This document shows, one piece after another, positions 15,957 through 38,525 of a stretch of 64,000 nucleotides of DNA. Each line of letters begins with the position of its first letter. The stretch's first letter is position 1. Under the pieces are notes generated by a model. The model ran no database searches, was not told the DNA's origin, and worked only from the letters and a program-made list of their open reading frames with translations. This stretch comes from Candidatus Saccharimonadales bacterium (GTDB taxonomy: Bacteria > Patescibacteriota > Saccharimonadia > Saccharimonadales > SZUA-47), in NCBI GenBank assembly GCA_041737385.1, contig JBGSRU010000001.1, positions 3,539-67,538 of the forward strand, in the 5' to 3' direction. Both the position numbers and the translations under genes were made by a program.

Positions 15957-15957
15957 A

Positions 15958-18856: not shown

Positions 18857-19132
18857 CTATATGCCCTCAAATACAGATTCACCGTTTGATTGTCCACCAA
18901 ATGGATTACTATTCGGATCAGTTCCAACATCGATATTCTGTGCTGGATTAATTGCATCAGCGCTAAAATATACCTGAGTAGGTCGATCAAAAGTCGTTGC
19001 AATAGGCTCTACAACTTCGACGCTCTGTGCACGGTCTGAAGGTGTTGAAAAGAATATTCCCGACAAAATAATCGAAATCACACCACTAACTATTGCGACA
19101 ACCACAAGGATACCTATGTCTTTTGCCTTCAT
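18857..19132 (-). CDS. small membrane-anchored protein of the pilMNO block (function unknown)
   Basis: 91 aa, single N-terminal TM helix; abuts the PilO-like gene without a gap. Confidence 0.4.
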   Translation of the reverse strand: MKAKDIGILVVVAIVSGVISIILSGIFFSTPSDRAQSVEVVEPIATTFDRPTQVYFSADAINPAQNIDVGTDPNSNPFGGQSNGESVFEGI

Positions 19133-19822
19133 TTATTTGACCTCCTTTGTGCCAAGCTCAAATGTCTTAGGCTGTGTAAAAAAGGTGTGCAAACTAAGCC
19201 GCGTTTGCAGGATACTTTCACCTATCTGAATTTGCATATTATCTACATACATCGGTCGTATTGATTTCTCTAATGTCTCCAAAAGACGCTGTGTACCGTC
19301 GCTATTCGAGCTAACTGAAAACGCATAGGGCACTTCTACAGGTTGTGCTGTACCTGAAGCAGTTTCTCCACTAACAGCTAAACTCGTATCTTCTGTGCCT
19401 CCTATTGAATCAATATCGTAGCCACCATCTCTCAATATTTTTTCGAAGCTACTAGATAGTGCAGGATAATCATAGCTTCCTGGCAGAGCATCAAGAACAA
19501 GTTTAGCGTTTTTGCCGTCTAGTGGCCCCTCACCACTTGGATTTCCACCGAGGATGTTTATAGTTTCATCCTGGAACGCAGTGAATGACTTTTTGAGCTC
19601 TTCAAGTGATTGCTTATTATCTTCTAGCTGATCAAGCGCTTTTTCTTTCTCTGAGATAATGCGACCTTGATATAAACTCTGACTTATCAATGCCTTAGCG
19701 GCGAATGCACTAAAGACGAATACGAACGTTGCAAATGCAACTGCTAACAGCATGCGCTTATTGGCTTTATCAACAATCTCGTGTTTCACTGACTTCTGTG
19801 AACTAAATACTTTGTCCGGCAT
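19133..19822 (-). CDS. pilO: PilO-like T4P alignment protein
   Basis: N-terminal TM helix plus coiled coil (EKEKALDQLEDNKQSLEELKK); position after pilN. Confidence 0.5.
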   Translation of the reverse strand: MPDKVFSSQKSVKHEIVDKANKRMLLAVAFATFVFVFSAFAAKALISQSLYQGRIISEKEKALDQLEDNKQSLEELKKSFTAFQDETINILGGNPSGEGPLDGKNAKLVLDALPGSYDYPALSSSFEKILRDGGYDIDSIGGTEDTSLAVSGETASGTAQPVEVPYAFSVSSNSDGTQRLLETLEKSIRPMYVDNMQIQIGESILQTRLSLHTFFTQPKTFELGTKEVK

Positions 19823-20487
19823 TATTGTTGCACCCCGCTGTTATCAACCTTTGTTGTTACTGATTGATCTCCTAGATACATAACTATCTCTTTTGTGTTA
19901 TCAAATATTGTCTTGTCGAAAGTAAACTCTATCTTGAAACTCGCCGTATCATTGTCTCCGCTTAGCTGGGTTGCGACCTGCGTGAACGGAGCTAGCTTAG
20001 TTGCAGTGGCATTATCTTCATCTTGCACGACTACACTATATCTTGTCGCTTTTATGTTATCGACGAACTTGTTGATAGTTGCAATAGTATCCGCAGTTCC
20101 TTGCAGCGACATTGTGCCTGATGCTGAATCATAATCAAGCAACCCTACTTTAACTTGAAGTGGGCTCACAAATGGAATATAGGTAAATATTCGAGACGTT
20201 TTTGGTTTTTGCTCATGAAGTGACGGAAGCACGAGAAGTTGGTTCTGCACAGTGAGCAACTGGCCAAGGTTTTCTGTAGACTGGATAGCGTTTGCTTCCT
20301 TTTGAATATCGTCTGTTAGATCAGATATGTGTGCTTTTTGGGCTACCTGAACAATACTAAACAAAATCAAAACTATACCAGCTGATGCTGCTGATATAAC
20401 AAACGAACCGGTCATTATCAGCCGTTTTGTACGCTTGGCTTTGACGTATTCTTTCTTTACGTCAGGTAATAAGTTGAACTGAATCAT
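19822..20487 (-). CDS. pilN: PilN-like T4P alignment protein
   Basis: MIQFNLLPDVKKEY start (INLLP-type motif) followed by a TM helix; 1-nt overlap with the PilO-like gene. Confidence 0.65.
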   Translation of the reverse strand: MIQFNLLPDVKKEYVKAKRTKRLIMTGSFVISAASAGIVLILFSIVQVAQKAHISDLTDDIQKEANAIQSTENLGQLLTVQNQLLVLPSLHEQKPKTSRIFTYIPFVSPLQVKVGLLDYDSASGTMSLQGTADTIATINKFVDNIKATRYSVVVQDEDNATATKLAPFTQVATQLSGDNDTASFKIEFTFDKTIFDNTKEIVMYLGDQSVTTKVDNSGVQQ

Positions 20488-20492
20488 ACGGT

Positions 20493-21530
20493 CTATTCTT
20501 GCCTCTCTGCTAAGCCGGTTGCGACTGCAAAACGGCTCGATACTGCGAGTAATTCATTTTGTTTTTGGGCAGGAAATGTCGCGTTTCGCCACGAATTACC
20601 AATCTCGACACTAATACCAAACTTATTAGCTATAGTCAGCGGGAATTCAGGTAGGGTTGACGCACCGCCAGTGACAAGTACACGCTCAATTTTGCTATTT
20701 GGATAACGAGTGTTGAAGAATTTGATGGATTTTTCAATTTCAGCGAGCAGAACATCAACTGTTCCGCTAATTGCGTTGAATATCTGTCCTTCGAGCTTGT
20801 CTTTGCTCATACCAAATTTGAACACAAACTGTTGCGCTTGTTTCTCATCGATACCAAGTGACTGTTGAGCTGACTTAATGATTCCTTCTATGCCAACCGG
20901 TATTGATCTAATCAGTCGAGGCGCATCGTTAAGCGTGATAATCAGGTCCGTTGCGATATCGCCCATATCTAGAATAAGTGTTGCTGAAGCAGCATTTGGA
21001 GCAAGTAACGACCGTGTAATAGCGAGGCTATCTGGCTCAAAAGCAATCACATTTAGGCCGATTGATTCTAAGAGATCGAGTCGTTGCTCAATAAAATTGT
21101 TGCTAACACTCGATAATAATAACTCAACCTTACTTGCTTCTTTTGGTGAATCACCAAGTAGCGCCCAATCAACTTTTGATTCTGTTAGAGGAGTAGGAAT
21201 CAATGAATCTGCTTGGAACCTAATGGTTTTTTCTAGTTCTGCAGGACTGAGTCTATCTACGTCAACAACAGTACTAAACACCTTCTGAGAAGGCAGACCA
21301 ACCGCGACGTTTGGTGTTGATATATTAGCTTGTTTGATTACCTCCTTGATCGCTGCTGCTAACTTCTGTTGATCGACATTTGCATCACTACGAGATATCC
21401 TTGGATCAATCTCAATAGAACCATAGTTAACTAAAACTTTAGTCTTTCCACCCCGCATCTGTACCACCCTGATTGCAGTTGTACCGATGTCGAGCCCGAA
21501 GAAATCAGATCCTATCGATAATATGCCCAT
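20493..21530 (-). CDS. pilM: PilM actin-like ATPase of the T4P alignment complex
   Basis: GLDIGTTAIRVVQM phosphate-1 motif, ILDMGDIATD, VLVTGGAS; 345 aa. Confidence 0.85.
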   Translation of the reverse strand: MGILSIGSDFFGLDIGTTAIRVVQMRGGKTKVLVNYGSIEIDPRISRSDANVDQQKLAAAIKEVIKQANISTPNVAVGLPSQKVFSTVVDVDRLSPAELEKTIRFQADSLIPTPLTESKVDWALLGDSPKEASKVELLLSSVSNNFIEQRLDLLESIGLNVIAFEPDSLAITRSLLAPNAASATLILDMGDIATDLIITLNDAPRLIRSIPVGIEGIIKSAQQSLGIDEKQAQQFVFKFGMSKDKLEGQIFNAISGTVDVLLAEIEKSIKFFNTRYPNSKIERVLVTGGASTLPEFPLTIANKFGISVEIGNSWRNATFPAQKQNELLAVSSRFAVATGLAERQE

Positions 21531-21589
21531 AACTTGTGTTTAATTATACTGCATATGTTTATATTTAGCACCCAATTTGTAAAACTTTT

Positions 21590-24157
21590 TTACAATGCTG
21601 GCGGGAGAGACAAGATCGAATCAAATCTACCACCGTATTCGTCTTGGTTTACAGATAGCAGTGCAAGATAAAATTCTGGTGAAAAACGAAACACTTCAGC
21701 GATGTTGGTTGAGGTGTATGGTTCCGGTATGTCGCTCGCATAGGCAACATTTCCTACTGTTCTATTGAGGTTAACTCGCTGCGCAATAAATGCTCCTATA
21801 ACCGTTAGCTTATTGCCACAAGTGGCAACTGCAGTTGAGCAAGTATTGATTGTGTCCTTGGTGGCATAGAGCCCGTTAAGCGCAGAAACGCTTCCATCGA
21901 TAGTAATTTTGCCCGTTGCGTAAAGTCTTAACAGTGGTATATTTTCAATTTCGGTTCCCCAACCACCTGTAACGCCTTCATAGAGGATATCTCCTTGTAT
22001 TGTCACGTCACCGTCAACAACTAGAGTGACTTGGGATCCTACCAAAACACTACTGGCAGCAAGGACTATTGACCTATCCGCAAAATAATTACCATCTAAA
22101 CCAGTTAGCGTGTTCGAAGTTAGCGCATCAAAGTCACTTGCGTCTGGGAATTCATCAGCACACAGCGCACTACCGAATCCACCACCGAACTCCAAAGGCC
22201 CTGTAGCCGCAGCAGTGTTAGCGAAAGACAGCGCTGAAGTCGACACCCAGCTTATATTTTGCGATCCAGGCAACACACCTTGTATGCGCCCAGTCGCAAA
22301 CACCGCGAGCTCAGAAGCAGAACCTTTATAGTTGGCGTGGCTGTTTGTATTGTTTACGAATAGTCCGTTGGCTTCAGCGTTCGCACTGCCCGCAGCAACA
22401 CACGTTGAGCCATATGAACCACCGGCAAAAACATCGTTTCCGTAGAACCGTACGTATGGTTTCGACCTGACTTGCACTTCATAATCTCCGCAAGTAAATG
22501 GGGCTGAAGTAATGCCGCTGAGCCCAGCGCGAGCAGCAAATGTCCCCGTCGTAGTCGCGACAATACCCCTCTTATACATAAAGAATGGTCCCCTGGCACT
22601 TGCACTGCTGATACTGCCCGATAAAGTCGAAGCATCCTCTACCGTTTGTGATACGTACATCGGACCATTATAAAATCCAGCAAAATCAAGCTTCGTTGAG
22701 TAAGTATACGCAGGGATACTTCCACCTAAAGATTGCGATAGTTCGAATGCAAAGGTTGCGTTAAATGGCTCGCCTAACCAAACGGCGGTTGGCGTGAGAT
22801 AACTACAAGTGAGCGTAGTACAAGCAGTAGCCGTCGTCACGATATCGGTGGTAACTTCACGCCCACCGGCTTCAGTATCGATGGCTTTAACTTGGAAGTT
22901 ATGTTGTCTTACATCAACCCATGATTCGATACTAAAATCACCATTTCCAGGCGATTGACCTGTTTTACGATAAACTCCTGATTGTTCAACCCCGTCGACA
23001 ATGAGGACAACAGTGATTACTGCACCTGCATCATCATCAGTTATCTGGTAGTTAAGTGTGCTACACGATGGAATACCAGAAATAGCGACACTAACTGGTG
23101 CATTGTACACTCTCACACAACGTACCGGGCCTGCCCTTGCACCTGTTGAAGTAATTGTTAGAGATGGAGTTGATACACCTTGGAATGGTTCTATTATCGC
23201 CCTAAAACAAACTTCTGTGTCGTTACTTAAAGTAGTAGGCAAAGTGTAGCTAGAGCTAAATGAGCTTGACGTAGCTCCTCCACCTAGCCCAGCTCCAGAA
23301 CTGTTTTGTATAGCTGACCAACTATCACCTCCAGCGTTCTGCTGGAAAGTATAGACATAATTAGCTCCCGTACCGTCACCATCATTTTTCACTGTACCTG
23401 CGAGATTAACCGTACTTCCATAATCAACTCGTGGATACGGTGAAGAGCTGCCGGTTGAGCTTGCAGTAAAAGCTTCGTGTTTATATTCCCAATTCTGCGG
23501 CAGAAATACGTTTAAATAGAAATCAAACCCAGAGAAACCAGACGAAGGACAGCTACCAAAATCGCTTTGATTACTTGGCGAGCCCGGATTACCAACGCAC
23601 CTGAATGTAGAGCTTATACTATAACGATGTATTCTTTTATCTGACACTTCTAATCTGTAGTATCCACTCGTCACAAATCCACCCGTAGGTGCGGTATATG
23701 TAAAGGTTGTTTGATTGGTCGCCCAGTATCCTTCTGCATCTACGGCGTAGGCGTATGCCAGCTGGACATTATTTAGGCTTGGCGTATTGGGTGATGTTGT
23801 AATGATGCCGTTATTAGTTGTCTGTAGCCCCCCAAGAATACCAGCTCTACATACTATCATAGCGACGTTATACTGCAACGTGACACTTGTCTGCCCGCTC
23901 GGCACATCAATAACGGTTGCGTCCGGATCGCCTGCAACCGACAACCAACTTATTTGCGCAACACCATTATTTGTGCCACCACAATCAAGCAAGTAGGATC
24001 TAATGCTTGCTGGCATTGCTCCACCAGTCGGATAGTTCTCAGCAACAGGCGCAGCGCTGACCGATTTTGTAGAAAATAACAGTATGGTAAGAAACAACAT
24101 AATACTCGCAAAAAATGCGTATTTTAACTTGTTGTTAAGTACTTTTTCGTAGATCAT
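21590..24157 (-). CDS. large secreted protein, paralog of 24724..28335 (putative pilus-associated surface protein/adhesin)
   Basis: 855 aa, signal peptide ...STKSVSA|AP; C-terminal ~300 aa alignable to the 1203-aa neighbour (KPYVRFYGNDVFAGGSYGSTC ... NIAEVFRFSPEFYLALLSV ... LSLPPAL). Confidence 0.6.
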   Translation of the reverse strand: MIYEKVLNNKLKYAFFASIMLFLTILLFSTKSVSAAPVAENYPTGGAMPASIRSYLLDCGGTNNGVAQISWLSVAGDPDATVIDVPSGQTSVTLQYNVAMIVCRAGILGGLQTTNNGIITTSPNTPSLNNVQLAYAYAVDAEGYWATNQTTFTYTAPTGGFVTSGYYRLEVSDKRIHRYSISSTFRCVGNPGSPSNQSDFGSCPSSGFSGFDFYLNVFLPQNWEYKHEAFTASSTGSSSPYPRVDYGSTVNLAGTVKNDGDGTGANYVYTFQQNAGGDSWSAIQNSSGAGLGGGATSSSFSSSYTLPTTLSNDTEVCFRAIIEPFQGVSTPSLTITSTGARAGPVRCVRVYNAPVSVAISGIPSCSTLNYQITDDDAGAVITVVLIVDGVEQSGVYRKTGQSPGNGDFSIESWVDVRQHNFQVKAIDTEAGGREVTTDIVTTATACTTLTCSYLTPTAVWLGEPFNATFAFELSQSLGGSIPAYTYSTKLDFAGFYNGPMYVSQTVEDASTLSGSISSASARGPFFMYKRGIVATTTGTFAARAGLSGITSAPFTCGDYEVQVRSKPYVRFYGNDVFAGGSYGSTCVAAGSANAEANGLFVNNTNSHANYKGSASELAVFATGRIQGVLPGSQNISWVSTSALSFANTAAATGPLEFGGGFGSALCADEFPDASDFDALTSNTLTGLDGNYFADRSIVLAASSVLVGSQVTLVVDGDVTIQGDILYEGVTGGWGTEIENIPLLRLYATGKITIDGSVSALNGLYATKDTINTCSTAVATCGNKLTVIGAFIAQRVNLNRTVGNVAYASDIPEPYTSTNIAEVFRFSPEFYLALLSVNQDEYGGRFDSILSLPPAL

Positions 24158-24672
24158 GGATTAAAGCTACTCCCGTTGCCATATACTTCGTCTCTAGCCT
24201 TAGAAACCCCTTCAAGCAAATCTTCTAGCTGAGCCAAGCTCAGTGAGTTAACAATATTCTTTTGATACAAACTTTCAGCGCTATTTTTAGAACTCAGTAA
24301 TTCAAACGCTCCTTTTGCATTATCCCAGTCAGTCTTATTTGCATAATAAAACGACTCGATATACAGGCAACTTGCACTGTCGTTATGTTCGGTGGTTTGC
24401 TTACTTTGTTTTAGCTGCTGCGCTAGAATTTCATCGTTCGTAGTAGCGAATAGTTGCGCCTGAGAAACTTCGCTATAGTTTTCTAGTACCGGACAGATGT
24501 TATCAGCTACTTCTGTTATAGCCTCACTGGAAATTTCATCATTTTTGCTTGGATCCTGTAGCTGTCCGAGAGCTAAAAACCCAAACAAAATGATTGTCAC
24601 TGCAAGCACTGAATACAACCAGTTTTTCTTTGAGCTATCAGGATTAGTAACCATAACCTTTATCATAGACAA
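24154..24672 (-). CDS. small membrane-anchored acidic protein, partner of the 855-aa protein
   Basis: 172 aa, one TM helix; its stop overlaps the downstream start (ATGA); weak similarity to 28316..28810 (SASCLYIESFYYA vs YSSCIYYAELAG). Confidence 0.5.
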   Translation of the reverse strand: MSMIKVMVTNPDSSKKNWLYSVLAVTIILFGFLALGQLQDPSKNDEISSEAITEVADNICPVLENYSEVSQAQLFATTNDEILAQQLKQSKQTTEHNDSASCLYIESFYYANKTDWDNAKGAFELLSSKNSAESLYQKNIVNSLSLAQLEDLLEGVSKARDEVYGNGSSFNP

Positions 24673-24723
24673 TTTAACTGTAAAATGAAACTGTTATGTT
24701 AAGGAATAAGCCAACTAAACCAG

Positions 24724-27700
24724 TTACAATGCTGGAGGCAAAGTGAGTAGTGCATCGAACCTACCTTCGCCGCCACCGACAGACAATAGGGCGAGATATA
24801 GTTCTGGTGAGAATCTAAATACTTCAGCAATATTTGAAGATGTATATGACTCAGTTGGAGATCCAGGCACCACTCCGTCATTTATTATACTTAGGTTGTA
24901 ACACATCCCCCAGCCTACGTCTACTCCTGGTATACTTGGGGAGCTATTGATTCTAATCTTGTCTACGCTCTGAACCGCTATTATATTATCACCTACCCTG
25001 AGTAGGGTTTTTGCTGGGAAAGTAGTGTTAGTTGCTGTGACAGTATTGTTTTGGGTAACTGCTTCTTGACCGTTTATATACACACGATACCAATCATCAG
25101 CAATCACAAACAGACTCAGATTTGACCCAGATAGTTGCAGTGAATCATACTGCGCTTGAGTCAAATTAAACTTGTTACGCACTAATGAATAGCCATTACT
25201 CTGGCTAAATGGTGCTCCAGCAGAAGTCCCATTTCTCTCCCACAGCACATTTTGATTTCTACCATCATAGTTAGCGTCAGGATAGTTGCTGTCTCGATTA
25301 GACACCGGTACATTTGCCCATATTCTATCTAAAGGATTACCATTGTAAGTACATGCATCAAGTTTGCTGCTATTCGAACCGCCAACTCCGCCTGGCGTAA
25401 ATTGACCTGCGTTAAAGCTCGGGCTGTTAGATGACCAGCCACCAAAAGCATCAGCCTTAAACCAAGCCCCATCGCCTGCGTCTATATAACTAAACAACAT
25501 TTTTGTGCTATCGCATAGGCCAAATTGTTTATCAAATTTATTCTCCGAAGGTTTATAAGGAGAAGATTTAGGTCTAGACCCAGATCCAGTGTTAGTTATG
25601 CAGGTCCCCCAATTTTCCATTTCTGATATATAGTTAGGTGTTTCCTGTAAGCCTATCCACTTCGCTTCCATGGAGCTTATATCTCCGCTATCTGAAAGAT
25701 TCGTAACTGTAGGTGCGCTTATTGTCGGCTGAGCGGGTATATAGCCTCCGATATTACCTGCTACCCGCAAAAGATGGACTCGCTTAGAAATAAATGCTCC
25801 GTTAATAGTCAGGTTGCGTCCACAATGTGTTGCAACTGCTGACTGATTAAGTGATGGATAGACAAGGTTAAGCCCTGCATTAAAGAATGAGCAAGTGTGT
25901 ATTTCTCCGCTTGGCGTCGGAGCAGTTGTTGGATTCTGAACCGCCACATACATACCGTCTATCTGCGTGACGTTATCATCAACATACATGTTACCTCGAG
26001 TTACCACTTTAACCAGAGGAATATCGTCAATGGTTGCCCATGGGCCAGGAGCGTAAGCAATAGAAGTTGCACCAGCAACATTTCCTATCACAGTTGTCCC
26101 GTCGACATATAGCGTGACTCTTTTCCCTGCCGGTACCTGCCCACTTGCAAATATGTGTAGCTGCCCACTGAATTGATAAACACCGCTTGGTAGAGTGCTG
26201 ACGTCAACGCGCTGTGCTCCTGGATTTCCAGCATAACTATCACTCGTTATGTTTGGAGAAGCTAACCTAGTTATAGTTGTAGGTTTCTCTGCCCAATAAT
26301 CATCCGCGCAAAGCGTGTTGCCGAAATAACCACCAAATGGCTTAGAGCCAGACCCAACTGCAGTATTTGCGAAACTGAGCGCAGTAACAGAAGACCTAGT
26401 CGTGTCCTCCGATCCTGGAAGCACTCCATCTATTTGACCGATCGCAAATATTGCAAGCTCTGATGCTGCCCCTGTATAAGTTGAGTGATTTGCAGGAGTA
26501 CCGAATAATCCATTACCTCTTGCGCTAGCGGACCCAGCGACAGTACATGTCGAGCCGTAAGAGCCTCCAGCAAACACATCATTGCCGTAAAACTTTACAT
26601 ACGGCTTAGAAGTAACGTCAATAGCTCCTGGTCCTCCTGGTCCTCCTGGTCCTCCAGACCCACAATCGCCAATAGCCGGCATATTTATATTTGGGCCAAC
26701 ATAATTTGTGACATCCCAACGAAGGCCGAACAAACCAGTAGTTGAAATATTAAGCGGTGTATTTGAGCGAACAATCATCGTGCCCCCTGCTGGGATAGTT
26801 TGGGGATAAGCTAGATACGTGGAAGTATACGGGTTGCCGTTACCAGTCAGAATTGGCGTTGTAGGGGGGGGTGTATAGACAGTGTAGGTTGCCGGTCCGG
26901 CGACCGGTATCGTAGTCGTCGTATTGTTTCGTAAAGAAACTTGAATATAGAAATCTTGTCCAGCTGTTACGGATATTGTACTTATTTCACACTCAGCTAT
27001 CGGGATACATATATATTCTGCGTTTAATGGGAATGTACCGCCATTTTCATCTGTTATAGTACCCGACACTGTTCGTGTTTCTGCCGCCCCATCGTAGTTC
27101 GGGATAAATAGACCGTCCGGAGGTAGTGGAGCAACAGTAATATCTCCCGTACCCGTTCCTGACACGTTGGTTGTTCCGCCTTGCCTACTAACCGCTAAGG
27201 CTACCGTCACATTTCCCCCATCAGGATGTGATGCGGTTAAGCTCTTGATGAAGAAGCGTCCACCGTTTGGTGTGCAAGAAATAGTGATAGTTCCCGTCGG
27301 CGGCGATCTACCGCAGTCGCCTAACAGTGCTGCACTGGGTAGAATCTGTACAGCTTCGATAGCTGGCAATGCACTAGTTCGTAATGTATAGATAGTATTT
27401 GCAGTAAGATTGTCTCGGATATCTTTGTATTGATTATTGCCAGTTGCCCCGTGTATTATACTTCTGCCACCTCCAGAAATTGTGACAGTCTGTCCTGCTT
27501 GATCGAAGTCGTAAAGACTTAAGATACCCTCTGCGGCGCACGCACTTTGAAAGGTTGCGGTGTGTACATGGGTTTCTCCTGGTGAGCCATAAAATGAGCT
27601 ATACACCCAACTCGTGTATAGTGAATTGAGCGGTGGCTCCAACCAATCAGCTGTTCTTGCCCCAGGACAGCTAATAGGATAAGCACTACTGCTGCATGGC

Positions 27701-28335
27701 CATCCGACAGGCGATACGCCAACCTTAACATCGCCTTGAATATCGGCAGGCACATTAACACTGAACCGTTCCATGTATCTTCTCTCTCTATTTGCTCCAC
27801 CCTCCAGCATAACTCCATCAGCCACTAGAATGTAAGGTTTGTAGCTCCTGCCGTCCGTACCTGTTATAGTTCTGAGCCCCGCGCCCGCTGCACTAAAGCT
27901 AATCGAGCCATCACAACCTGCCTTGCTCCCTAAAGCAGTAGCAAAATTTGCACCGAAAACACGAAAGTTAATATATCCAGCCCACAAATCATTACCCCCA
28001 GGGCCGCATGGCACATCAAGAGTAACTTGCCCTGTAACACTCTGCTCAACATACACTGCGGCTACTGTGGTTCGTGCTTTTAGTTTAGTCTGGGCATTGT
28101 AATTTCGATTACTCTCAAGGCATGGAGTTTGACTTACCCTGCAGCTGTGCGAGCGACTACCGGTCACCTGGACTACGGCATAGTTACCAACACCCGTACC
28201 CGGAAACGACGTGCCTGCAGCACTAATTACCGCTGTTTGTGCACTACCATTAGCACCGGACAGTAATAGCATTGTGAGAAAGAACCCACCAAAAAAGATC
28301 AATAAAAACGAAGTCTTACTGCGCAGCATTTTCAT
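24724..28335 (-). CDS. giant secreted protein with PA14-like insertion, paralog of 21590..24157
   Basis: 1203 aa, signal peptide; shared module KPYVKFYGNDVFAGGSYGSTC...; insertion with a PA14-like strand pattern LFVIADDWYRVYINGQEAV; tail ...LTLPPAL. Confidence 0.6.
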   Translation of the reverse strand: MKMLRSKTSFLLIFFGGFFLTMLLLSGANGSAQTAVISAAGTSFPGTGVGNYAVVQVTGSRSHSCRVSQTPCLESNRNYNAQTKLKARTTVAAVYVEQSVTGQVTLDVPCGPGGNDLWAGYINFRVFGANFATALGSKAGCDGSISFSAAGAGLRTITGTDGRSYKPYILVADGVMLEGGANRERRYMERFSVNVPADIQGDVKVGVSPVGWPCSSSAYPISCPGARTADWLEPPLNSLYTSWVYSSFYGSPGETHVHTATFQSACAAEGILSLYDFDQAGQTVTISGGGRSIIHGATGNNQYKDIRDNLTANTIYTLRTSALPAIEAVQILPSAALLGDCGRSPPTGTITISCTPNGGRFFIKSLTASHPDGGNVTVALAVSRQGGTTNVSGTGTGDITVAPLPPDGLFIPNYDGAAETRTVSGTITDENGGTFPLNAEYICIPIAECEISTISVTAGQDFYIQVSLRNNTTTTIPVAGPATYTVYTPPPTTPILTGNGNPYTSTYLAYPQTIPAGGTMIVRSNTPLNISTTGLFGLRWDVTNYVGPNINMPAIGDCGSGGPGGPGGPGAIDVTSKPYVKFYGNDVFAGGSYGSTCTVAGSASARGNGLFGTPANHSTYTGAASELAIFAIGQIDGVLPGSEDTTRSSVTALSFANTAVGSGSKPFGGYFGNTLCADDYWAEKPTTITRLASPNITSDSYAGNPGAQRVDVSTLPSGVYQFSGQLHIFASGQVPAGKRVTLYVDGTTVIGNVAGATSIAYAPGPWATIDDIPLVKVVTRGNMYVDDNVTQIDGMYVAVQNPTTAPTPSGEIHTCSFFNAGLNLVYPSLNQSAVATHCGRNLTINGAFISKRVHLLRVAGNIGGYIPAQPTISAPTVTNLSDSGDISSMEAKWIGLQETPNYISEMENWGTCITNTGSGSRPKSSPYKPSENKFDKQFGLCDSTKMLFSYIDAGDGAWFKADAFGGWSSNSPSFNAGQFTPGGVGGSNSSKLDACTYNGNPLDRIWANVPVSNRDSNYPDANYDGRNQNVLWERNGTSAGAPFSQSNGYSLVRNKFNLTQAQYDSLQLSGSNLSLFVIADDWYRVYINGQEAVTQNNTVTATNTTFPAKTLLRVGDNIIAVQSVDKIRINSSPSIPGVDVGWGMCYNLSIINDGVVPGSPTESYTSSNIAEVFRFSPELYLALLSVGGGEGRFDALLTLPPAL
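26627..26655 (-). repeat. three tandem 9-bp units (cctggtcct) encoding GPGGPGGPG
   Basis: Perfect triplicate inside the 1203-aa gene, at the junction between its unique N-terminal part and the shared module. Confidence 0.8.
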
Positions 28336-30141: not shown

Positions 30142-30755
30142 TTAATTATCAGCAAGATCATACTTAATTTCCTCTAGCATGTTTCTATGATCTTCATAGT
30201 CATATACAAAATTCATGTAATCTTGTCTACTGTCGAACGTCTCCATGACTTTATTAGTATTAAGCCATTCCGGTTCTTTACCTTTTCTGTAATAGTTTAT
30301 GCTTGAATACTTGAAATACTTCCAGCTTCTAGGATTTAAATGAATATATCGAGTAATATGTGAAAAATATGCATCTTCATCTATTCTTGAAGCTTTGAAG
30401 TTGCCTTCGAACAGAGAGCCACTTCGTCTATGCTTCAATTGAAATATCTAACGTAGCTAGTTAACATGCTGCGCATAAATTTTGTAAGATCGCCTTTTTT
30501 TTCCTGATGTATAAATAAATGAAAATGATTATCCATAAAACAATATGCTAATAAATCTATGCTTCCCCTATAGTTCGGATACGCCACTCCCATACTACTG
30601 AGTACTTTTTTCTTCGACAGGTAGCGAGCAAATAGACTTATAAACTTCTGTTTGTCAGCTTGGTCTAAATAGATTTTCTGCTTACTTGCACCACGAAGGT
30701 ACACATGATAGTAAGAATCTTCTATATCTTGGCGAATAATATTACGTGAAGGCAT
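30142..30755 (-). pseudogene. RayT/IS200-like Y1 transposase interrupted by a -1 frameshift
   Basis: N-part (30435..30755) has YHVYLRG and HUH box DNHFHLFIH. C-part (30142..30438) has GSLFEGNFKAS...TRYIHLNP with the catalytic Tyr. Frames meet at TTCAATTGAAGCAT. Confidence 0.7.
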
Positions 30756-30789: not shown

Positions 30790-31134
30790 ATGTTCCCCTT
30801 CTTTAGAGGTCCAACCTCTAAAGAATTGCCATCTCACCTGAAGCGAAGCATCACCTTAGACAATGGTACAGAGATGAATGACTACGAAGAGCTGGAGATC
30901 CGTACCAAAGCTACCGTCTACTTTGCTCATCCATACCACTCATGGGAGCGTGGAACCAACGAGAACTTCAATGGATTACTGCGTCAGTTCTATCCAAAGA
31001 ACAGGGAGATACGAACAATAGATCAGGATGAACTTGACCTAGCGGCCAAGCTCCTCAATACTAGACCTCGTAAACGACACGGCTACAAAAGCCCAGTCGA
31101 GCTACTCAAGCCTTACCTAGATGTCGCTTTTTGA
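30790..31134 (+). pseudogene. C-terminal fragment of an IS30-family DDE transposase
   Basis: ITLDNGTEM ... VYFAHPYHSWERGTNENFNGLLRQFYPK. The N-terminal two thirds (HTH and first Asp) are missing. Confidence 0.75.
30801..30823. repeat. perfect 9-bp-stem hairpin ctttagagg-tccaa-cctctaaag
   Basis: Shares ggtccaacctcta with the 30029-30114 repeats; lies exactly where similarity to IS30 transposases begins. Confidence 0.7.
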
Positions 31135-31374: not shown

Positions 31375-34026
31375 CTACGCAGCCATAGCTGCTACTTCGC
31401 CTCTTACCCTCTCGTAGGCAAGCTCATAGATTTCTGGGTACTTATTTCTAAATGAATCACGACTTGCGTCACGGTAAGTTTCCCAACGTCCATGTACATA
31501 ACCAACTTTATTTGGTTCTATTTTAGCTGCAATCTTCTGTGGATCTGCACCTAATGCAAGCATTTCGTTAATCGTATACACCCAAACTGTATTTACTTCA
31601 GGGTTATCTAGTAAGTCATTTACATCGACTTTAGCCCCGTGTTTTACTGCTTCTGTGAGGTGGGTTAAAACATCATTTGGGTTCATTGAGCCAACTAGTT
31701 CATTAATATCAAGCTCAGCACCGTATTGCTGTAGTTCATCAAACCTATCTAATTGATATTGCTTTGCTATATGTTTTACAATATCCTGAATATCGCAACC
31801 GTACTCCAGAAGTGAAGCAATATTCTTTGATACATAATATGTCCTATCGTAGTCAGCATCATCACCATTGAAAATACGCCCGTCACGGCCAAGGGTCATT
31901 CCGTCAAGCAGTGCTTGCTTATCAACGCCAAGTTCCATAAATTTCGCAAGGTCACCTCCGTGTTCACTGCCATCAACACCCATCTTTATCGCCACAGTAT
32001 TCACGTCAAACCCATTTTTCAAGAAATCATTCTTGAAATTATATGTGCCGCCCCCATAGTTGCCGACGAATGTGTCTTTATTATCACGTATTTTTCCATA
32101 TAAAAGGTCAATGAAGCGCCCTTGCTCAAGGTCAGATTGTGGCACTGCACTTATAATCGTTTTCAGCGCCCCCACAGCGCTACTTGCATGCATTCCGCCC
32201 TCTCCGTAAAGTGCAACATCCTGACTCTTCGCCATCTTTAGCATTTTCAGCATTAGTTCAGGCGACGCGCCTCCTCGGAGCCAGTTATCCATCTCGATTT
32301 CTGACACTCCTTCTTTAAGTCCAATTACTTCCGCCTCTCCGTAAGTACGGACAATTAAATCATCAACATCAAATTTTGCGCCTATTTTTTTAAGTTCTAT
32401 AAGATTAGCAAGTTTACCCTTGTCGTCGAATTTCTCGACAACGTCGTCAGGCGTGATATTTGCACCAATAAACGTAAGGCGACCATAATTATCGAGCAGT
32501 TCTCTTGGATGAAATTTTGCCGCCAGCTCATCTGGATCAATATCTGCGCCTCTTTCTTGTAGCTTAACAAATACCCCCAGCTGTGCATTCGGTGTTTTAA
32601 ATTGGCTATACAAATCATTTAGGTCTATGTGTGCACCAACGTTAGTTAGCTCATCAAGGAAATCAACTCTTGCCTTGGGCGACAGTTTACTTGCAACAAT
32701 ATTTGCATCGAAACCTTGACCCAAATATCGTCCAAGATTAGTCTCTAACTTATCAGCAGACGTTACCATGAGCTCTGCTTCTTTCATATCAATCCCTTCC
32801 ATTTCTGCAAGCTGCTGGATATGTTTAGACCTATCTCTTTTGAACTGCCCTACCCTCGGATCCCTTGCATAAGTATCCATATATTTAATAGGCCGTTCAG
32901 CTTCATATAAGAAAAGAATCTCTTCGCGGGTAAATGGTTCGTCACTCTGAAACTTTTTGTCCATCTGTATAAGCATTTGTTTATCTTCAAAGGCCTGTAG
33001 ATATCTTTCTCCACCCGGTAGTTGTATAACCTTTTCCTGAATAGTTGGTAGAAGCGCATCTTCCACATATTGACTAGCTCCACCCTTTAATCCTGACAAC
33101 TCGGCTACCCTACCGCTTCCATCCAAACGGACTGATGCGGCTGCTGTGGGGCTTATTTTGCCAGTTTCTGGATCTTGCAAATGAAATAATAAAAATCTTC
33201 CGCCGCCATATGTGTAGGATTCTGCATTTGAACGCCCTGCAATGCACCAAGGTGTGCCTTCTGCAGCTTCTGTTATTGCTTGAATATCGGCACTCGTATA
33301 CTCTCTCCATTCACCACGGACATCTTCTGGCTTCTCTGGAGTTGGAACTATAGCTTTCTGGTCAAGGAGCATATGACTATAAAGTTTATTGAAATTGCCA
33401 CTTTTGACTAGCTTAGCGACACTTTCATCATCACCGCCTTGATCTTTTACTGCCTCATAGACTTTCGCAAGTGCTGCTGGATTTAACTGTGGGTAAGGAG
33501 CAACAGTTCCTTTTGAGCGTTTGCTATAGTTACCTTTTGCTTTATCAAAAGTACCCAAACGTGACATTCCATCCCAAGCATATAACCTAAACCATACCGG
33601 GTATTGATCGCCGGTCATTTCTAGGTAATCACGCCAAGATTCCAGTCCTGTTCTCTGCGCTTCTTGTAGTTGGTCGGTTAGCTCCTCCTTTTCGTGACGT
33701 CCTAAATGGACATCGCCTAGACCGTTATCGCGTGCTATTTGTTTTTGCTGTTCCCAGTATCCGTCAGATATATCTTCTGGCTTGATTACTAGCTCTTTAA
33801 CAGCGCTATCCCAAACTCTTGCCTCTACACCTTCATGCTGTAAAAGCTTCGTCAGTCGAGCTAGGTGCGCTCCTACTCGTCGTTCACTATTAGCTCTTAC
33901 CCGTTTGTCTCCGTTATTCTCAGCATGAACTACAGAGTTTTCAACACGCTGTTGGTCCGCTAGATTCGGCATTAATCTATTTAACGTAGCAGCATCACTG
34001 GGTTGATTAGGAGTTATTTCTGACAT
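31375..34026 (-). CDS. large hypothetical protein with at least 10 degenerate ~28-aa helical repeats
   Basis: 883 aa; recurring L-x3-G-[AF]-x-[IVF]-D-x-[ND]-[DE]-L units (ERGADIDPDEL, NVGAHIDLNDL, KIGAKFDVDDL, YGAELDINEL, HGAKVDVNDL ...). Confidence 0.55.
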   Translation of the reverse strand: MSEITPNQPSDAATLNRLMPNLADQQRVENSVVHAENNGDKRVRANSERRVGAHLARLTKLLQHEGVEARVWDSAVKELVIKPEDISDGYWEQQKQIARDNGLGDVHLGRHEKEELTDQLQEAQRTGLESWRDYLEMTGDQYPVWFRLYAWDGMSRLGTFDKAKGNYSKRSKGTVAPYPQLNPAALAKVYEAVKDQGGDDESVAKLVKSGNFNKLYSHMLLDQKAIVPTPEKPEDVRGEWREYTSADIQAITEAAEGTPWCIAGRSNAESYTYGGGRFLLFHLQDPETGKISPTAAASVRLDGSGRVAELSGLKGGASQYVEDALLPTIQEKVIQLPGGERYLQAFEDKQMLIQMDKKFQSDEPFTREEILFLYEAERPIKYMDTYARDPRVGQFKRDRSKHIQQLAEMEGIDMKEAELMVTSADKLETNLGRYLGQGFDANIVASKLSPKARVDFLDELTNVGAHIDLNDLYSQFKTPNAQLGVFVKLQERGADIDPDELAAKFHPRELLDNYGRLTFIGANITPDDVVEKFDDKGKLANLIELKKIGAKFDVDDLIVRTYGEAEVIGLKEGVSEIEMDNWLRGGASPELMLKMLKMAKSQDVALYGEGGMHASSAVGALKTIISAVPQSDLEQGRFIDLLYGKIRDNKDTFVGNYGGGTYNFKNDFLKNGFDVNTVAIKMGVDGSEHGGDLAKFMELGVDKQALLDGMTLGRDGRIFNGDDADYDRTYYVSKNIASLLEYGCDIQDIVKHIAKQYQLDRFDELQQYGAELDINELVGSMNPNDVLTHLTEAVKHGAKVDVNDLLDNPEVNTVWVYTINEMLALGADPQKIAAKIEPNKVGYVHGRWETYRDASRDSFRNKYPEIYELAYERVRGEVAAMAA

Positions 34027-34111
34027 TTTTTTGTTTTTTTATTTACACTCTGATTATAGCACGCTTATGCTTATTTGTCAATTCTATTTGCCTCTGTTAG
34101 AATATACATAT

Positions 34112-35197
34112 ATGGCATTATCAATTGGAATCGTAGGTTTGCCGAACGTTGGTAAGTCAACATTATTCAACGCATTAACTGACAGCTCTGTCTTAGCGGC
34201 AAACTATCCTTTCGCAACTATCGAACCGAATACCGGTATCGTTCCAGTGCCGGACAACCGACTTGGAAAACTTGCTGAACTATACAAATCAGAGAAAATA
34301 ATTCCCGCTACAGTGACATTTGTAGACATTGCCGGCCTTGTCGCTGGTGCAAGCAAAGGCGAAGGGCTCGGCAATCAGTTTTTGAGCCATATTCGTTCTT
34401 GCAATGCTATATGCCAAGTGGTGCGTGCATTCGATAACCCCGATGTACTTCGTAGTGATAGCTCAAGAGATCCAGCCCACGATATAGATGTCATTGTCAC
34501 TGAGCTTGTTTTAGCTGATTTACAAACAGTTAACAACCGGCTGCCAAAGCTTGAAAAAGAAGCAAAAGCCAACCCAAAGCTGAAGCCAATATTAGATATC
34601 TTGAACACAATTATTACGCACCTAGATAGTGGTGATCCTCTCTGGAAGAACAGCGAACTACTTACCGACTACACTGCCGAGCTATCTGACCTACATCTCA
34701 TGACTGCAAAGCCGATATTGTATCTGTTCAACCTTGACGACTCTCAGCTGAACGACGAAACGAAAAAAGCTGAACTACGTGAGCTTGTTGCACCTGCACC
34801 AGTTGTCTTCGTAAGCGCAAAGCTAGAAGATGAACTGCGTGGGCTGGACGAACACGACCGTATAGAAATGCTTGAGAGCTATGGCCAAAATGAGCAAGGA
34901 CTTAACCAAGTAATACATACAGCCTATGATCTGCTTGGACTGCAAAGCTACCTCACTGCCGGAGAAAAAGAAGTGCGTGCTTGGACTGTCAAGAAAGGTT
35001 CCACCGCTCCTCAAGCAGCCGGAGTCATACACACTGATTTTGAAAAAGGCTTCATAGCGGCACAGATTGTGAACTATGAAGACCTTATGACTGCCGGTTC
35101 AGAAGTAGCAGCAAAAGCAGCAGGCAGAATGAGAACTGAAGGTAAAACTTACATCATGAAAGAAGGAGATGTTGTTGAATTTCGTTTTAACAACTAG
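34112..35197 (+). CDS. ychF: ribosome-binding ATPase YchF
   Basis: MALSIGIVGLPNVGKSTLFNALT, TGS-like C-terminus ...IMKEGDVVEFRFN; the ORF-track start at 34031 is an upstream extension. Confidence 0.9.
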   Translation: MALSIGIVGLPNVGKSTLFNALTDSSVLAANYPFATIEPNTGIVPVPDNRLGKLAELYKSEKIIPATVTFVDIAGLVAGASKGEGLGNQFLSHIRSCNAICQVVRAFDNPDVLRSDSSRDPAHDIDVIVTELVLADLQTVNNRLPKLEKEAKANPKLKPILDILNTIITHLDSGDPLWKNSELLTDYTAELSDLHLMTAKPILYLFNLDDSQLNDETKKAELRELVAPAPVVFVSAKLEDELRGLDEHDRIEMLESYGQNEQGLNQVIHTAYDLLGLQSYLTAGEKEVRAWTVKKGSTAPQAAGVIHTDFEKGFIAAQIVNYEDLMTAGSEVAAKAAGRMRTEGKTYIMKEGDVVEFRFNN

Positions 35198-35206: not shown

Positions 35207-35590
35207 ATGAAAAATAGCTCCGAAGACTTCAAACATTTTATTACTCACTTACGGTTTGAGTCAGTGGCTCTCGCTGTACTTATGATAGTTCTTACCTACA
35301 AATCAACCTACAGTTTGTGGTGGATACTAATTGGGTTTCCGTTTATAGATATATGTATGGTTGGGTATTTGTTCGGTCCTAAAAGCGGCGCGCTAGCGTA
35401 TAACCTTATTCATAACGCAACAATTCCAACGCTACTAATCTCAATAGGTGTACTGACCAGTAACGGCATACTATCCGTCATTGGCTACGTCTGGGTGTTT
35501 CATAGCGCGTTCGATAGAATTCTAGGATATGGCCTCAAACATAAGCACTCTTTCAACGAGACACATATGGGTAAAATAATAAAAAGCTAA
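35207..35590 (+). CDS. DUF4260-like small membrane protein
   Basis: 127 aa, four hydrophobic segments, ...HSAFDRILGYGLKH motif recalled from that family. Confidence 0.45.
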   Translation: MKNSSEDFKHFITHLRFESVALAVLMIVLTYKSTYSLWWILIGFPFIDICMVGYLFGPKSGALAYNLIHNATIPTLLISIGVLTSNGILSVIGYVWVFHSAFDRILGYGLKHKHSFNETHMGKIIKS

Positions 35591-35600: not shown

Positions 35601-36506
35601 CTAGAGGGCAAAAACTCTTTCCAGCTCTTCACCGAATGAGGCTATTTTGCGGGTGCCGACGCCAACGGTCAGCACCGACACAATTACTCTGCGTCCATCG
35701 GTCAGCTCAATTATTGCCACATCGTGATACTCATCGAATTCGTTAAACCCAACTTTGTTGTAGACTGTTGAAGTTGTGAACCCTTTATTAAGAGCGTCCT
35801 GAAAAATCTGGTTCTTCATAGAATCCAAAAATGCTATCTGTGAAACAGTACTCAGGCCTTCACCGCTAGAGATTCGTTGGAGAATCTTTGCAGTATCAAG
35901 CGGTGTTGTCCGTAAGCCGCCAACATTAGTGTTCTGTATTCCGTAAGTTTGTATATTGTCGTTTATAACGTCAGCTCCAATTTCTGAAAGCACAGCTTCA
36001 GCGCAGGGGCTGTCGGACTCTCGTATCATTAGGTCCAAACACTCATACCTCGTCCTGCCATCGTTATACTGTTCACTTGGATCTGCCTGCTCACTATCAA
36101 CCAATCTATATCCTTCGTAAGCGACAAAAATTTTATATAGACTTGCAGAAAAGAAATCTTTATTTGGTTCATAAGCAGCTAAAAGAGCCCCGTCGCTGCG
36201 CATAACAACAACCCCTGCTTGGTCGTCAGGACCGAGACTATTCACCCAAGTATCAATCACTGATTGAATCTTGCTACTGCTAAACTCATCCTCAGTTGCA
36301 TCCGTATCGACTGGCTCAAGCGGAGGTGTTTCAACAACAGCTACGACAGGTTCAGTAACACTTGTTACGGGAGTGGCCGCATCTCGATCATAGAAAGCCC
36401 ATAATATAAGTGCGACAAACGACAAGAGCAATACAAGCACAACTCCGAGCAGTAGTTGACTTCTCTTTGAGCCTTGTAAATAGTGTTTTTGGATTTGCTT
36501 CACCAC
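35601..36506 (-). CDS. membrane-anchored serine hydrolase (class A beta-lactamase-like fold)
   Basis: N-terminal TM helix; S-x-x-K box FSASLYKIF. Confidence 0.45.
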   Translation of the reverse strand: MVKQIQKHYLQGSKRSQLLLGVVLVLLLSFVALILWAFYDRDAATPVTSVTEPVVAVVETPPLEPVDTDATEDEFSSSKIQSVIDTWVNSLGPDDQAGVVVMRSDGALLAAYEPNKDFFSASLYKIFVAYEGYRLVDSEQADPSEQYNDGRTRYECLDLMIRESDSPCAEAVLSEIGADVINDNIQTYGIQNTNVGGLRTTPLDTAKILQRISSGEGLSTVSQIAFLDSMKNQIFQDALNKGFTTSTVYNKVGFNEFDEYHDVAIIELTDGRRVIVSVLTVGVGTRKIASFGEELERVFAL

Positions 36507-37162: not shown

Positions 37163-37813
37163 ATGAAAACACGCATACTTAAATGGGAACTACTCGATTC
37201 GTTTTTTAAAGCGCACACTCGTATACAATATAAAAAAGGTGAAACTATAGTTCGTCCTGAGGACGATCCAAGCGGAGTGTACTTAATTGAGTGGGGGTTT
37301 GTTAAAGCGTATACGATTACTAAATACGGCGAAGAAAACCTCCTTATTGTCAGAGGCTCAGGAGGTGTGTTTCCGCTCATATGGGCTTTTACTGGAGAAC
37401 ACCGCAGCGTTACCTATGAAGCTATGGAACCGACGTCGCTCTGGCGTGTTGCAAAGGCAGACTATCTAGAATTCCTCGATAGAAATCCAGATATTATTCC
37501 TGTGATATTGGATATGGCCATTGATGCTTATCGTCTGCATTCTGAGAGAGTAATGACCTTGAGTTACCGAACCGCTCGAGAAAGAATCATCTCATTCTTA
37601 CTCACTCACGCTCAGCGTTTTGGTGTTCAAAACAAAGACGGCAGCATGACAATTCACGCGCCATTTAGGCAATCAGATATTGCCAGTTCCGTTAATGCAA
37701 CCCGCGAGACAACCAGCCGCGAGATTAATAATTTGAAGAAAAAAGGCTTACTTGATGTTGTTGATCATAAAATTGTCATAAAAGACATCAAAAGCATGAG
37801 AGCAATACTCTAG
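37163..37813 (+). CDS. Crp/Fnr family transcriptional regulator
   Basis: cNMP-binding beta-roll followed by HTH SDIASSVNATRETTSREINNLKKKGLL; start chosen at MKTRIL. Confidence 0.8.
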   Translation: MKTRILKWELLDSFFKAHTRIQYKKGETIVRPEDDPSGVYLIEWGFVKAYTITKYGEENLLIVRGSGGVFPLIWAFTGEHRSVTYEAMEPTSLWRVAKADYLEFLDRNPDIIPVILDMAIDAYRLHSERVMTLSYRTARERIISFLLTHAQRFGVQNKDGSMTIHAPFRQSDIASSVNATRETTSREINNLKKKGLLDVVDHKIVIKDIKSMRAIL

Positions 37814-37814
37814 C

Positions 37815-38525
37815 CTAAATAGACTTAAGTTTATAAAATCGTTCGACATTTCCTTTAGCACCTGCAACTTGCGAATCAGCTTTATCTAGGATGACGAACC
37901 GGTTAGTTTGTAGCCACTCTTCGAAATTTTTAAGTATCTGACGTCTAATAGCGCTGTTTTTTATAATTCCCTTATTCACTTGCTCCTTGCCCGCCTCGAA
38001 TTGAGGTTTACACATATAAACAAGAATTGAGGATGTAGACATGAGATTTAAGATCGACGGGAGCACAACTCTACCTGAGACAAAAGAAACGTCAGCAACA
38101 ACAATATCAATCGAAGTTTCTGTGGTAAATTTACGTATATCTGTTTTTTCATGAAGCTCTATTTTTTCGTTACCGTGCAAACTACTATGAAGCTGGTCTG
38201 TTCCAATATCGACTGCAATCACCTTGTGGGCGTCATGTTGCAAGGCATAATCAGTAAACCCTCCAGTGCTACTACCGACGTCGAGTACTATCTTATCCCT
38301 AAAATCTAGCTGAAACTGCTTTGCAATTGAGGCTAATTTCAGTGCAGCTCTCGAAACATATTGCTCACTAGCAAGTACGATACTATCACTACTCGAGACC
38401 GCAAAGCTTGGTTTAGTAATTTTCTTACCATTAACCGTTACCACTCCAAGCTTAATATAATTTTCAGCTTGCGAACGGCTTGAAACAACGCTCCGCTTAA
38501 GAAGCTCTTTATCGAGTCTTTTCAT
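37815..38525 (-). CDS. tlyA: TlyA-family rRNA 2'-O-methyltransferase
   Basis: N-terminal S4 domain (RLDKELLKRSVVSSRSQAENYIKLGVVTVNGK) plus FtsJ-type MTase motif VLDVGSSTGGFTD. Confidence 0.85.
   Translation of the reverse strand: MKRLDKELLKRSVVSSRSQAENYIKLGVVTVNGKKITKPSFAVSSSDSIVLASEQYVSRAALKLASIAKQFQLDFRDKIVLDVGSSTGGFTDYALQHDAHKVIAVDIGTDQLHSSLHGNEKIELHEKTDIRKFTTETSIDIVVADVSFVSGRVVLPSILNLMSTSSILVYMCKPQFEAGKEQVNKGIIKNSAIRRQILKNFEEWLQTNRFVILDKADSQVAGAKGNVERFYKLKSI

Follow-up and report, generated by a model that had tools for sequence, protein, structure and literature searches.

The gene, its locus and its family

In a 64,000-nucleotide stretch of a Candidatus Saccharimonadales genome, called the window in the following, the minus strand carries at 31375..34026 an open reading frame (ORF) running from ATG to stop over 883 codons plus the stop codon, which represents a complete gene. 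An identical protein (P0001) is found in public data, and its contig shows the same neighbours. The product is acidic (pI 5.0) and soluble, and neither a signal peptide nor a transmembrane segment was found in its 883 aa (maximum 19-residue Kyte-Doolittle mean 0.99). The initial annotation of this DNA had delimited the same ORF and also assigned no signal peptide, but described the product as an orphan, possibly a horizontally acquired interaction scaffold or effector-like protein. The present analysis places the window gene, a variant with repeats, in a very large, uncharacterised family in which a strongly conserved N-terminal module is joined to exchangeable C-terminal parts. The features of the gene are as follows.

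31375..34026, minus strand: complete gene, 883 codons plus stop (ORF list; identical public protein P0001)
34053..34081, minus strand: sigma-70 consensus promoter, 12/12 (consensus scan, pattern match only)
32752..34026, minus strand: N-terminal module, residues 1-425 (AlphaFold2 model, phmmer family)
32842..33864, minus strand: most conserved stretch, residues 55-395 (alignment of 69 divergent homologs, 43 invariant columns)
33022..33324, minus strand: putative PcfJ-like alpha/beta core, residues 235-335 (model, Foldseek search of BFVD, hhalign)
33238..33258, minus strand: GTPWCIA motif, residues 257-263 (alignment; C261 aligned to the PcfJ Cys)
33058..33096, minus strand: invariant Gly-rich loop, residues 311-323 (alignment and model, pLDDT below 50 at 313-319)
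32326..32757, minus strand: repeat block 1, residues 424-567, five ankyrin-like units of about 28 aa (model; four units significant by the family hidden Markov model)
32050..32325, minus strand: helical insert, residues 568-659 (secondary structure of the model)
31507..32049, minus strand: repeat block 2, residues 660-840, six units, the first two degenerate (model; two units significant by the family hidden Markov model)
31375..31506, minus strand: C-terminal helical tail, residues 841-883 (...YPEIYELAYERVRGEVAAMAA) (tail comparison; model helices 854-882)

The gene is divergent from ychF at 34109..35197, and both share a spacer of 82 bp. For ychF, the listed TTG start at 34031 lies probably too far upstream, while the ATG at 34109 agrees with the G1 motif. 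Facing the repeat-protein gene, the spacer contains a perfect sigma-70 consensus (TTGACA, 17 nt, TG-TATAAT, extended -10) that stops 27 nt upstream of the ATG. A second promoter match (10/12) at 34075-34103 on the plus strand faces ychF and overlaps the first.

On the other side, 240-1,230 bp off the 3' end of the repeat-protein gene, fragments of insertion sequences (IS) are located. These are an IS200-like Y1 transposase, broken up into two minus-strand ORFs that overlap (30142-30438 and 30435-30755; Pfam Y1_Tnp, E 1e-6) and, on the plus strand, a 114-aa ORF (30790-31134) without a Pfam hit, judged by eye as a C-terminal fragment of an IS30 transposase. The placement of ychF and of the IS fragments in the initial annotation was correct. 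Their proximity would fit an orphan gene acquired not long ago and brought in together with these IS elements, a form of the horizontal acquisition considered in the initial annotation, but several results speak against such an origin. The compositional deviation that could have accompanied it is not seen: GC content (0.429) and GC at third codon positions (GC3, 0.335) of the gene both deviate by less than one standard deviation from the long ORFs of the window (0.442 +/- 0.020 and 0.369 +/- 0.038; 28 ORFs, target gene included). The closest genome ortholog, with 61% identity (locus L001 of another Saccharimonadales genome), adjoins ychF, bPH, Crp-like and methyltransferase genes as here, and the IS200-like/IS30-like patch is absent from this syntenic locus and private to the source genome. 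Also, thousands of family members occur in the same phylum, and only 2 of 2.9 million viral contigs (IMG/VR) contain a relative. Because of native composition, synteny with a locus free of IS fragments and the large family within the phylum, a recent acquisition with the IS elements is contradicted, and we give it next to no probability. The gene is native, chromosomal and syntenic with its ortholog.

The designation as an orphan did not hold either. A first database search with the 883-aa protein yielded at least 766 homologs, and a phmmer search with the N-terminal 425 aa against 1.84 billion representative proteins, clustered at 50% identity, yielded 1,361 representative clusters at E <= 1e-3, of which 464 reached E <= 1e-30. 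Nearly always, the module forms the N-terminal part of a protein of 500-1,000 aa. For the phyletic distribution, 185,579 species genomes were searched, and the best 80 loci came almost all from Candidatus Saccharibacteria (TM7), namely Nanosyncoccus, Nanosynbacter and Saccharimonadales, with samples from the human mouth, the ruminant gut and some environmental sources. Up to four family loci are present per assembly. A phage-borne family was considered and rejected, as only the two viral contigs mentioned above contain a relative, one of them without clear phage genes, and tblastn of the family against 50,697 phage records gave zero matches. The genes next to other family loci are unrelated housekeeping genes and reflect orthologous positions; a conserved neighbour linked to the family was not found, and no neighbour recurred in more than 14 of 81 loci.

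The N-terminal module and the exchangeable rear half

Residues 1-425 fold confidently on their own in AlphaFold2 (predicted local distance difference test, pLDDT, 87.9; predicted TM-score, pTM, 0.80). The model consists of a helical bundle (8-137), an alpha/beta core and a helical cap (323-420). The core strands are located at 157-161, 166-169, 238-243, 277-284, 291-301 and 307-311, with helices between them. Within residues 235-335, the elements follow each other as strand b1 (238-243), helix a1 (245-254), the Trp-Cys pair (260-261), a2 (265-272), b2 (277-284), b3 (291-301), b4 (307-311) and a3 (323-335). Among 69 divergent homologs 43 columns are invariant, all in residues 55-395. Invariant residues include W260 and C261 in the GTPWCIA motif, C261 being the sole Cys of the module, and the Gly-rich loop S311-G312-L313-x-x-G316-x-x-Q319-x-x-E322-D323 between b4 and a3, which is at the same time the least confident region of the model.

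The two halves of the protein differ strongly in conservation. Between the source genome and the L001 genome, the N-terminal module is 83-84% identical (84% for residues 55-395), the neighbouring universal GTPase YchF 69% and the repeat half 47%. Over 15 homologs, identity ranges from 62 to 86% in the N-terminal half and from 23 to 48% in the C-terminal half.

The N-terminal module had no match in Pfam, NCBIfam, PHROGs, PADLOC or PDB sequences and no significant Foldseek match in the PDB. When PDB sequences were searched with phmmer and with a family profile, all matches fell on the repeats. The only Pfam match of the 883-aa protein at E <= 10 was HTH_40 (E 0.033). The earlier statement that the N-terminal part matches nothing recognisable is thus valid for curated libraries, while profile-profile comparison and the top Foldseek matches in a viral structure library point to the remote PcfJ-like relation described below. 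Three candidates were discarded: PF28018, which appears in precomputed annotation of some homologs, gives faint 'YshB' matches inside the repeats and is not a model of the module; a Cys-His catalytic dyad was ruled out, since the module has no invariant His; and a CX5R phosphatase motif was ruled out because it is not conserved.

The fold also raises the question of a GNAT-type (Gcn5-related N-acetyltransferase) acyltransferase, or another transferase using CoA or nucleotides, which would acylate targets bound by the repeats. Weak matches to this fold were obtained in both structure libraries, comprising RimI (7n1l), CBU0801 (9mto; TM-score, TMt, 0.36), EctA, HAT1 and malonyl-CoA decarboxylase as well as a Klosneuvirus GNAT (probability 0.57). 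In its order b1-a1-a2-b2-b3-b4-Gly loop-a3, the core resembles about the first two thirds of a GNAT fold, and the invariant Gly-rich loop between b4 and a3 is presumably reminiscent of the GNAT pyrophosphate-binding loop. On the other hand, the GNAT matches had E-values of at least 0.33 and TM-scores of at most 0.36, the b5-a4-b6 half of the fold is absent after a3 in the model, and no Pfam acetyltransferase match was found. We consider an acyltransferase very unlikely and take the resemblance as a lead only.

The rear half of the window protein contains 11 shortened ankyrin-like units of 26-29 aa. In the AlphaFold2 model of the full-length protein (mean pLDDT 87.7), these appear as 11 helix-loop-helix units with pLDDT above 90, five in residues 424-567 and six in residues 660-840. 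The 11 repeat strings and the GTPWCIAGRS string quoted in the initial annotation were all found at the residues given there, and the repeats are supported statistically. A regular expression, derived post hoc, matched 8 times versus 0.35 times in shuffled sequences (maximum 4 in 2,000), and the comparison of block 452-564 with block 757-839 scored 71 versus 26.6 +/- 4.5 in shuffles (z = 9.8). A family repeat hidden Markov model (HMM) built on 645 units recovered six query units at an independent E-value of <= 0.01, four in block 1 and two in block 2. The five remaining units (at about residues 435, 669, 697, 797 and 823) are too degenerate for sequence statistics and visible in the model. Two other HMMs were abandoned: one anchored on GAD[IV][DN] across the family was too insensitive, and one seeded with the query's own repeats was circular and did not find further copies. 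The helical insert (568-659) has no similarity to the repeat units, and conservation of the C-terminal tail is limited to the clade of the query. Because no DNA-level repeat is present within the gene, the units are old.

Judged by profile comparison and the model, the rear half is probably an ankyrin-related solenoid. The L-L-x-x-G-A-D-[IV]-[DN] helix-loop signature of the repeats is also that of ankyrin proteins, for example designed ankyrin repeat proteins (DARPins) or bacterial Ank effectors (Legionella, Coxiella), and the helix-loop-helix units of the model would likewise stack into a solenoid. The repeats differ from ankyrin in the length of the unit (25-29 aa across the family versus 33) and in the absence of the G-TPLH beta-turn segment. 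The family profile matched DARPin fusions among PDB sequences with E-values of 3e-7 to 8e-4, and many single DARPins at weaker E, with a gap of about five residues needed in every repeat at the place of the TPLH turn. No Pfam Ank model (Ank, Ank_2-5) reaches the gathering threshold on the query; the homologs P0031, P0058, P0095 and P0045 pass Ank_4 by summed score only, with partial matches to model positions 11-26. An ankyrin resemblance in which the rest of the consensus is missing, as first described, is in line with these results. Foldseek with the full-length model gave only generic matches to designed or helical-repeat proteins (TM-score below 0.2).

Across the family the repeat half is variable in size and in kind. 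The repeat period is 25-29 aa and the copy number ranges from 0 to 26; for members of at least 500 aa, three or more ankyrin-like repeats were found in 174 of 311 and none in 92 of 311. Other members carry a different C-terminal part. In P0378, the same N-terminal module is joined to ten DUF4116 repeats (PF13475, E 1.5e-165), whereas the query repeats have no DUF4116 match and P0378 comes apparently from a Bacillota contig. Segments resembling leucine-rich repeats (LRR) form the C-termini of P0347 and of the L080 member (LRR_5-like), and further members have C-termini without a Pfam match. The contig of P0378 (L098, 4001-6718) also has GerA and the RimP-NusA-YlxR-IF2-RbfA operon, and L080 is binned as Bacilli. 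The N-terminal module may thus reach beyond Saccharibacteria into Bacillota, unless P0378 and L080 are binning errors.

A probable remote relation to PcfJ, and relatives targeted by diversity-generating retroelements

The top two Foldseek matches of the N-terminal module in the viral structure library BFVD were PcfJ-like proteins (E 0.10 and 0.16, probability 0.30 and 0.15); the search of the PDB yielded no solved PcfJ structure. PcfJ (PF14284) is found on the Enterococcus faecalis plasmid pCF10, a Gram-positive conjugative system, and in many Herelleviridae and temperate phages of Bacillota. In pCF10 and the phage relatives, the PcfJ core consists of a strand, a helix with terminal EG, xxHC(V/I)G, a helix, GxxxIxFxR, xxTxE and xxVxQxRG. 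The family core has the same order of elements with EGTPWCIA, GxxFxLFHL, ASIRL and VxExSGL. In every hhalign run in which the family was aligned to PcfJ the register was identical, with C261 on the Cys of the 'HC(V/I)G' motif. Also, both PcfJ and the N-terminal module are soluble, about 400-450 aa long and without a signal peptide. They differ in the His-Cys of PcfJ versus Trp-Cys in the family, in the position of the core, which is at the C-terminus of PcfJ and followed in the family by the helical cap and the long repeat array, and in location, PcfJ being encoded on plasmids and phages and the window gene on the chromosome, syntenic with the ychF-adjacent ortholog.

With an HMM of the PcfJ core, 15 of 300 family modules outscored all shuffled decoys. 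The alignments of the eight top scorers listed share the b2-b4 part of the core, and seven of these eight modules belong to a distant subfamily with the core pattern GDFYVYYTRD..VPRVAIRM..G.V.EVRG, an unambiguous homolog of the query (E about 1e-45 to 1e-54). In hhalign, the core of this subfamily matched a diverse PcfJ core with a score of 27.2 (P 2.5e-4, probability 43%, z about 6.9) versus 11.4 +/- 2.3 and a maximum of 18.5 in 200 column-permuted controls, some selection bias being left in these values since the subfamily was picked for its best PcfJ-core HMM score. Alignment of the whole module to whole PcfJ covered 317 columns (P 0.0066). Comparing the family with a single PcfJ sequence or with a shallow Enterococcus PcfJ profile gave no signal. 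The link from PcfJ to the query is transitive, because the distant subfamily is significant against PcfJ and the profiles of the query clade are not. On this basis, the alpha/beta core with the invariant Trp-Cys is probably related, though remotely, to the PcfJ domain encoded by conjugative plasmids and phages.

The surroundings of pcfJ genes were inspected as well. On pCF10, pcfJ (37207-37983; L081 12208-12984) overlaps with the end of an AcrIIA9-family gene, annotated as encoding a Cas9 inhibitor, and in large phages PcfJ genes adjoin genes for PhoH, thymidylate synthase, dNMP kinase, DNA polymerase or ligase. This gene context suggests an early or host-takeover role of PcfJ.

Some relatives of the window gene are targets of diversity-generating retroelements (DGRs). 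In the locus L094, which lies among recombinases, a 110-nt repeat (9901-10010) lies at the 3' end of the family gene (7977-10016), and the second copy of this repeat is located 431 nt downstream (10332-10441), followed by a bAvd-like gene and a reverse transcriptase (RT) gene with the IGNLTSQ...YGDD hallmark. Mismatches between the two copies fall on adenines of the downstream copy in 24 of 25 cases (Fisher p = 2e-16). The same arrangement is present in L072, from an environmental Saccharibacteria metagenome-assembled genome, with 12 of 12 mismatches at template adenines, and in L033 from Candidatus Nanosyncoccus alces with 15 of 17 (p = 4e-10). The L033 protein has a typical module with the GTPWC motif, about 60% identical to that of members bearing ankyrin-like repeats, and a C-terminal lectin-type variable domain (...FWSAS...AYYLGF...SVRCV). 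Not all distant members have a DGR nearby.

Two further observations were made at these loci. Just upstream of IGNLTSQ, the RT ORF of L094 contains an in-frame (AGAC)n microsatellite encoding (DRQT)n (11301-11404), which could be an assembly artefact or a slippage-prone switch. Within 8 kb, L072 has two DGR-type RT motifs (at 989 and about 8713) and an extra pair of 106-nt repeats (1-106 and 1670-1775, 85% identity), which may represent a second DGR cassette.

A 'PcfJ-like protein' motif upstream of the variable region (VR) has been reported for DGR target genes of the Candidate Phyla Radiation (CPR; independent survey by Wu et al., NAR 2018, category g, PMC5758913). The genes in L094, L072 and L033, which have the N-terminal module of the window protein, are likewise DGR targets with a 3' VR, a template region, an RT and an Avd-like gene, and the family defined here is very probably the one noted in that survey. 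The window gene differs in having ankyrin-like repeats in place of the VR-bearing lectin-type domain. The survey (PMC5758913) neither described the N-terminal module family nor tied it to repeat-bearing members, and in the searchable literature this motif is the only prior trace of the family.

The combination of variable binding parts with DGR-diversified cytoplasmic proteins matches the logic of innate immunity, and the protein could be an intracellular immune sensor or conflict protein, whose variable C-terminal module would sense proteins of phages or mobile elements and whose N-terminal module would respond. This would agree with the absence of a signal peptide and of a transmembrane segment, with the multiple copies per genome and with the position of the L094 gene among recombinases. 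No PADLOC defence model matched, however, family loci lie outside defence islands with housekeeping genes as neighbours, the PcfJ relatives are on the offensive side (phages, plasmids), and an NTPase or nuclease effector domain is not recognisable. Weighing both sides, we regard an immune sensor as rather doubtful.

Possible roles in an epibiont

Because a constrained module is joined to one that is expanded, exchanged or hypermutated, we infer that the N-terminal module is the active part and that the rear half selects targets. The reading we favour, at roughly an even chance, is that of a two-part protein, serving the epibiont as adaptor or effector in an antagonistic interaction and combining a constant functional module with an interchangeable recognition module. 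Residues 1-425, constant and strongly constrained, would carry the activity, either enzymatic or by docking on a conserved machine, and the fast-evolving solenoid of 11 units in residues 424-840 would select the target. Its exchange across the family (ankyrin-like, DUF4116, LRR-like) and, in some members, its hypermutation by a DGR are what an arms race would leave on a module for recognition. The protein would be used as adaptor or effector at the epibiont interface, most plausibly with the host bacterium, and might be delivered by the Gram-positive-type type IV secretion system (T4SS) of Saccharibacteria. This T4SS has been described as essential and as most similar to Gram-positive conjugative systems (PMC10633639), to which the source of PcfJ, pCF10, also belongs. 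The target host would be a bacterium and not a eukaryote, in contrast to the ankyrin effectors mentioned above. As far as the initial annotation spoke of an interaction scaffold or an effector-like protein, this fits the rear half, which is ankyrin-related, fast-evolving and replaced by other binding modules in relatives.

Several points weigh against this two-part adaptor or effector. Delivery to a host is purely an assumption, because no recognisable secretion signal is present in the 883-aa protein, no partner gene is conserved across the family loci and no T4SS gene was found among 20 annotated neighbouring ORFs of the window. Neither a DGR-type RT motif (IGNLTSQ...YxDD) in the 64-kb window nor a DNA repeat accompanies the window gene. 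For profiles of the query clade the link to PcfJ is weak, with non-significant hhalign P-values of 0.22, 0.25 and 0.045, and its significant part is affected by the choice of the subfamily. The Pfam PcfJ model (PF14284) matched neither the query nor eight distant members at E <= 10, and where PcfJ has the His of its 'HC' motif, the family has the invariant W260. No function for PcfJ was found in the searchable literature; hence a mechanism does not follow from the homology.

The very high conservation of the N-terminal module, exceeding that of YchF, is also compatible with an internal housekeeping role. In this case the protein would be a scaffold or assembly factor, the N-terminal module docking on a conserved machine such as the pilus, the T4SS, the ribosome or the division apparatus and the repeats serving as an adaptor surface. 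The conserved position next to ychF, the housekeeping genes in the neighbourhood and the perfect consensus promoter, a pattern match, would suit such a factor. Up to four divergent paralogs in one tiny genome would not, wholesale replacement of the C-terminus and DGR hypermutation in relatives are atypical for such factors, and no conserved partner gene is found across the loci. We consider a housekeeping scaffold unlikely.

A more specific form of the favoured adaptor or effector would be the long-sought cargo of the essential T4SS. The family members would then descend from PcfJ proteins of conjugative elements, their constant module being an enzyme that uses the invariant Cys and is injected into the host bacterium, with the rear half (ankyrin-like, DUF4116, LRR or DGR-diversified lectin) aimed at targets varying between host strains. 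In this full form the proposal is improbable; if true, the PcfJ domain, widespread in phages and plasmids, would thereby obtain its first function. The supplement of the Southlakia transposon sequencing study contains no PcfJ or DUF4116 entry, and the ankyrin-annotated proteins therein, all of them small, could not be tied to the family.

The rest of the window is consistent with a Saccharibacteria chromosome, containing a type IV pilus cluster, FtsK, RNase J and PNPase. Beyond ychF, a DUF4260 membrane protein (35207-35590, plus strand) and a class A beta-lactamase-like protein with an N-terminal transmembrane segment (35601-36506, minus strand; Beta-lactamase2, E 4.5e-25) are encoded. The pilus cluster (14742-28335, minus strand) comprises PilC/T2SSF (14742-15956), PilB/T2SSE with MshEN (17054-18835) and PilM (20493-21530). 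After these pilus genes, two very large ORFs without a Pfam hit follow, one of 855 aa (21590-24157) and one of 1,203 aa (24724-28335), the latter with an N-terminal hydrophobic segment; both are possibly pilus-associated adhesins. Also, two C-type lectin domains of the eukaryotic type (Pfam Lectin_C, E 5e-29) are present in a 552-aa protein (10720-12378, minus strand), an unusual feature in a bacterium of reduced genome.

Judged by the searchable literature, three points appear to be new: the module of about 400 aa as a defined domain, its conservation above that of YchF, and the link between PcfJ, ankyrin-like repeats, DUF4116, LRR and DGRs. The domain is missing from the Pfam copy searched. 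Thereby, three things are newly connected: the uncharacterised PcfJ domain known from phages and conjugative plasmids, the CPR targets of DGRs noted as 'PcfJ-like', and ankyrin-like repeat proteins of TM7 from mouth and gut. Living as obligate, parasitic epibionts, Saccharibacteria have genomes of less than 1 Mb, and their recognition and manipulation of host bacteria are largely obscure. Up to four large genes per tiny genome would be devoted to a single scheme of a constant part plus a recognition part, and the family offers concrete, testable candidates for the interaction with hosts or mobile elements in a phylum for which genetic tools are now available.

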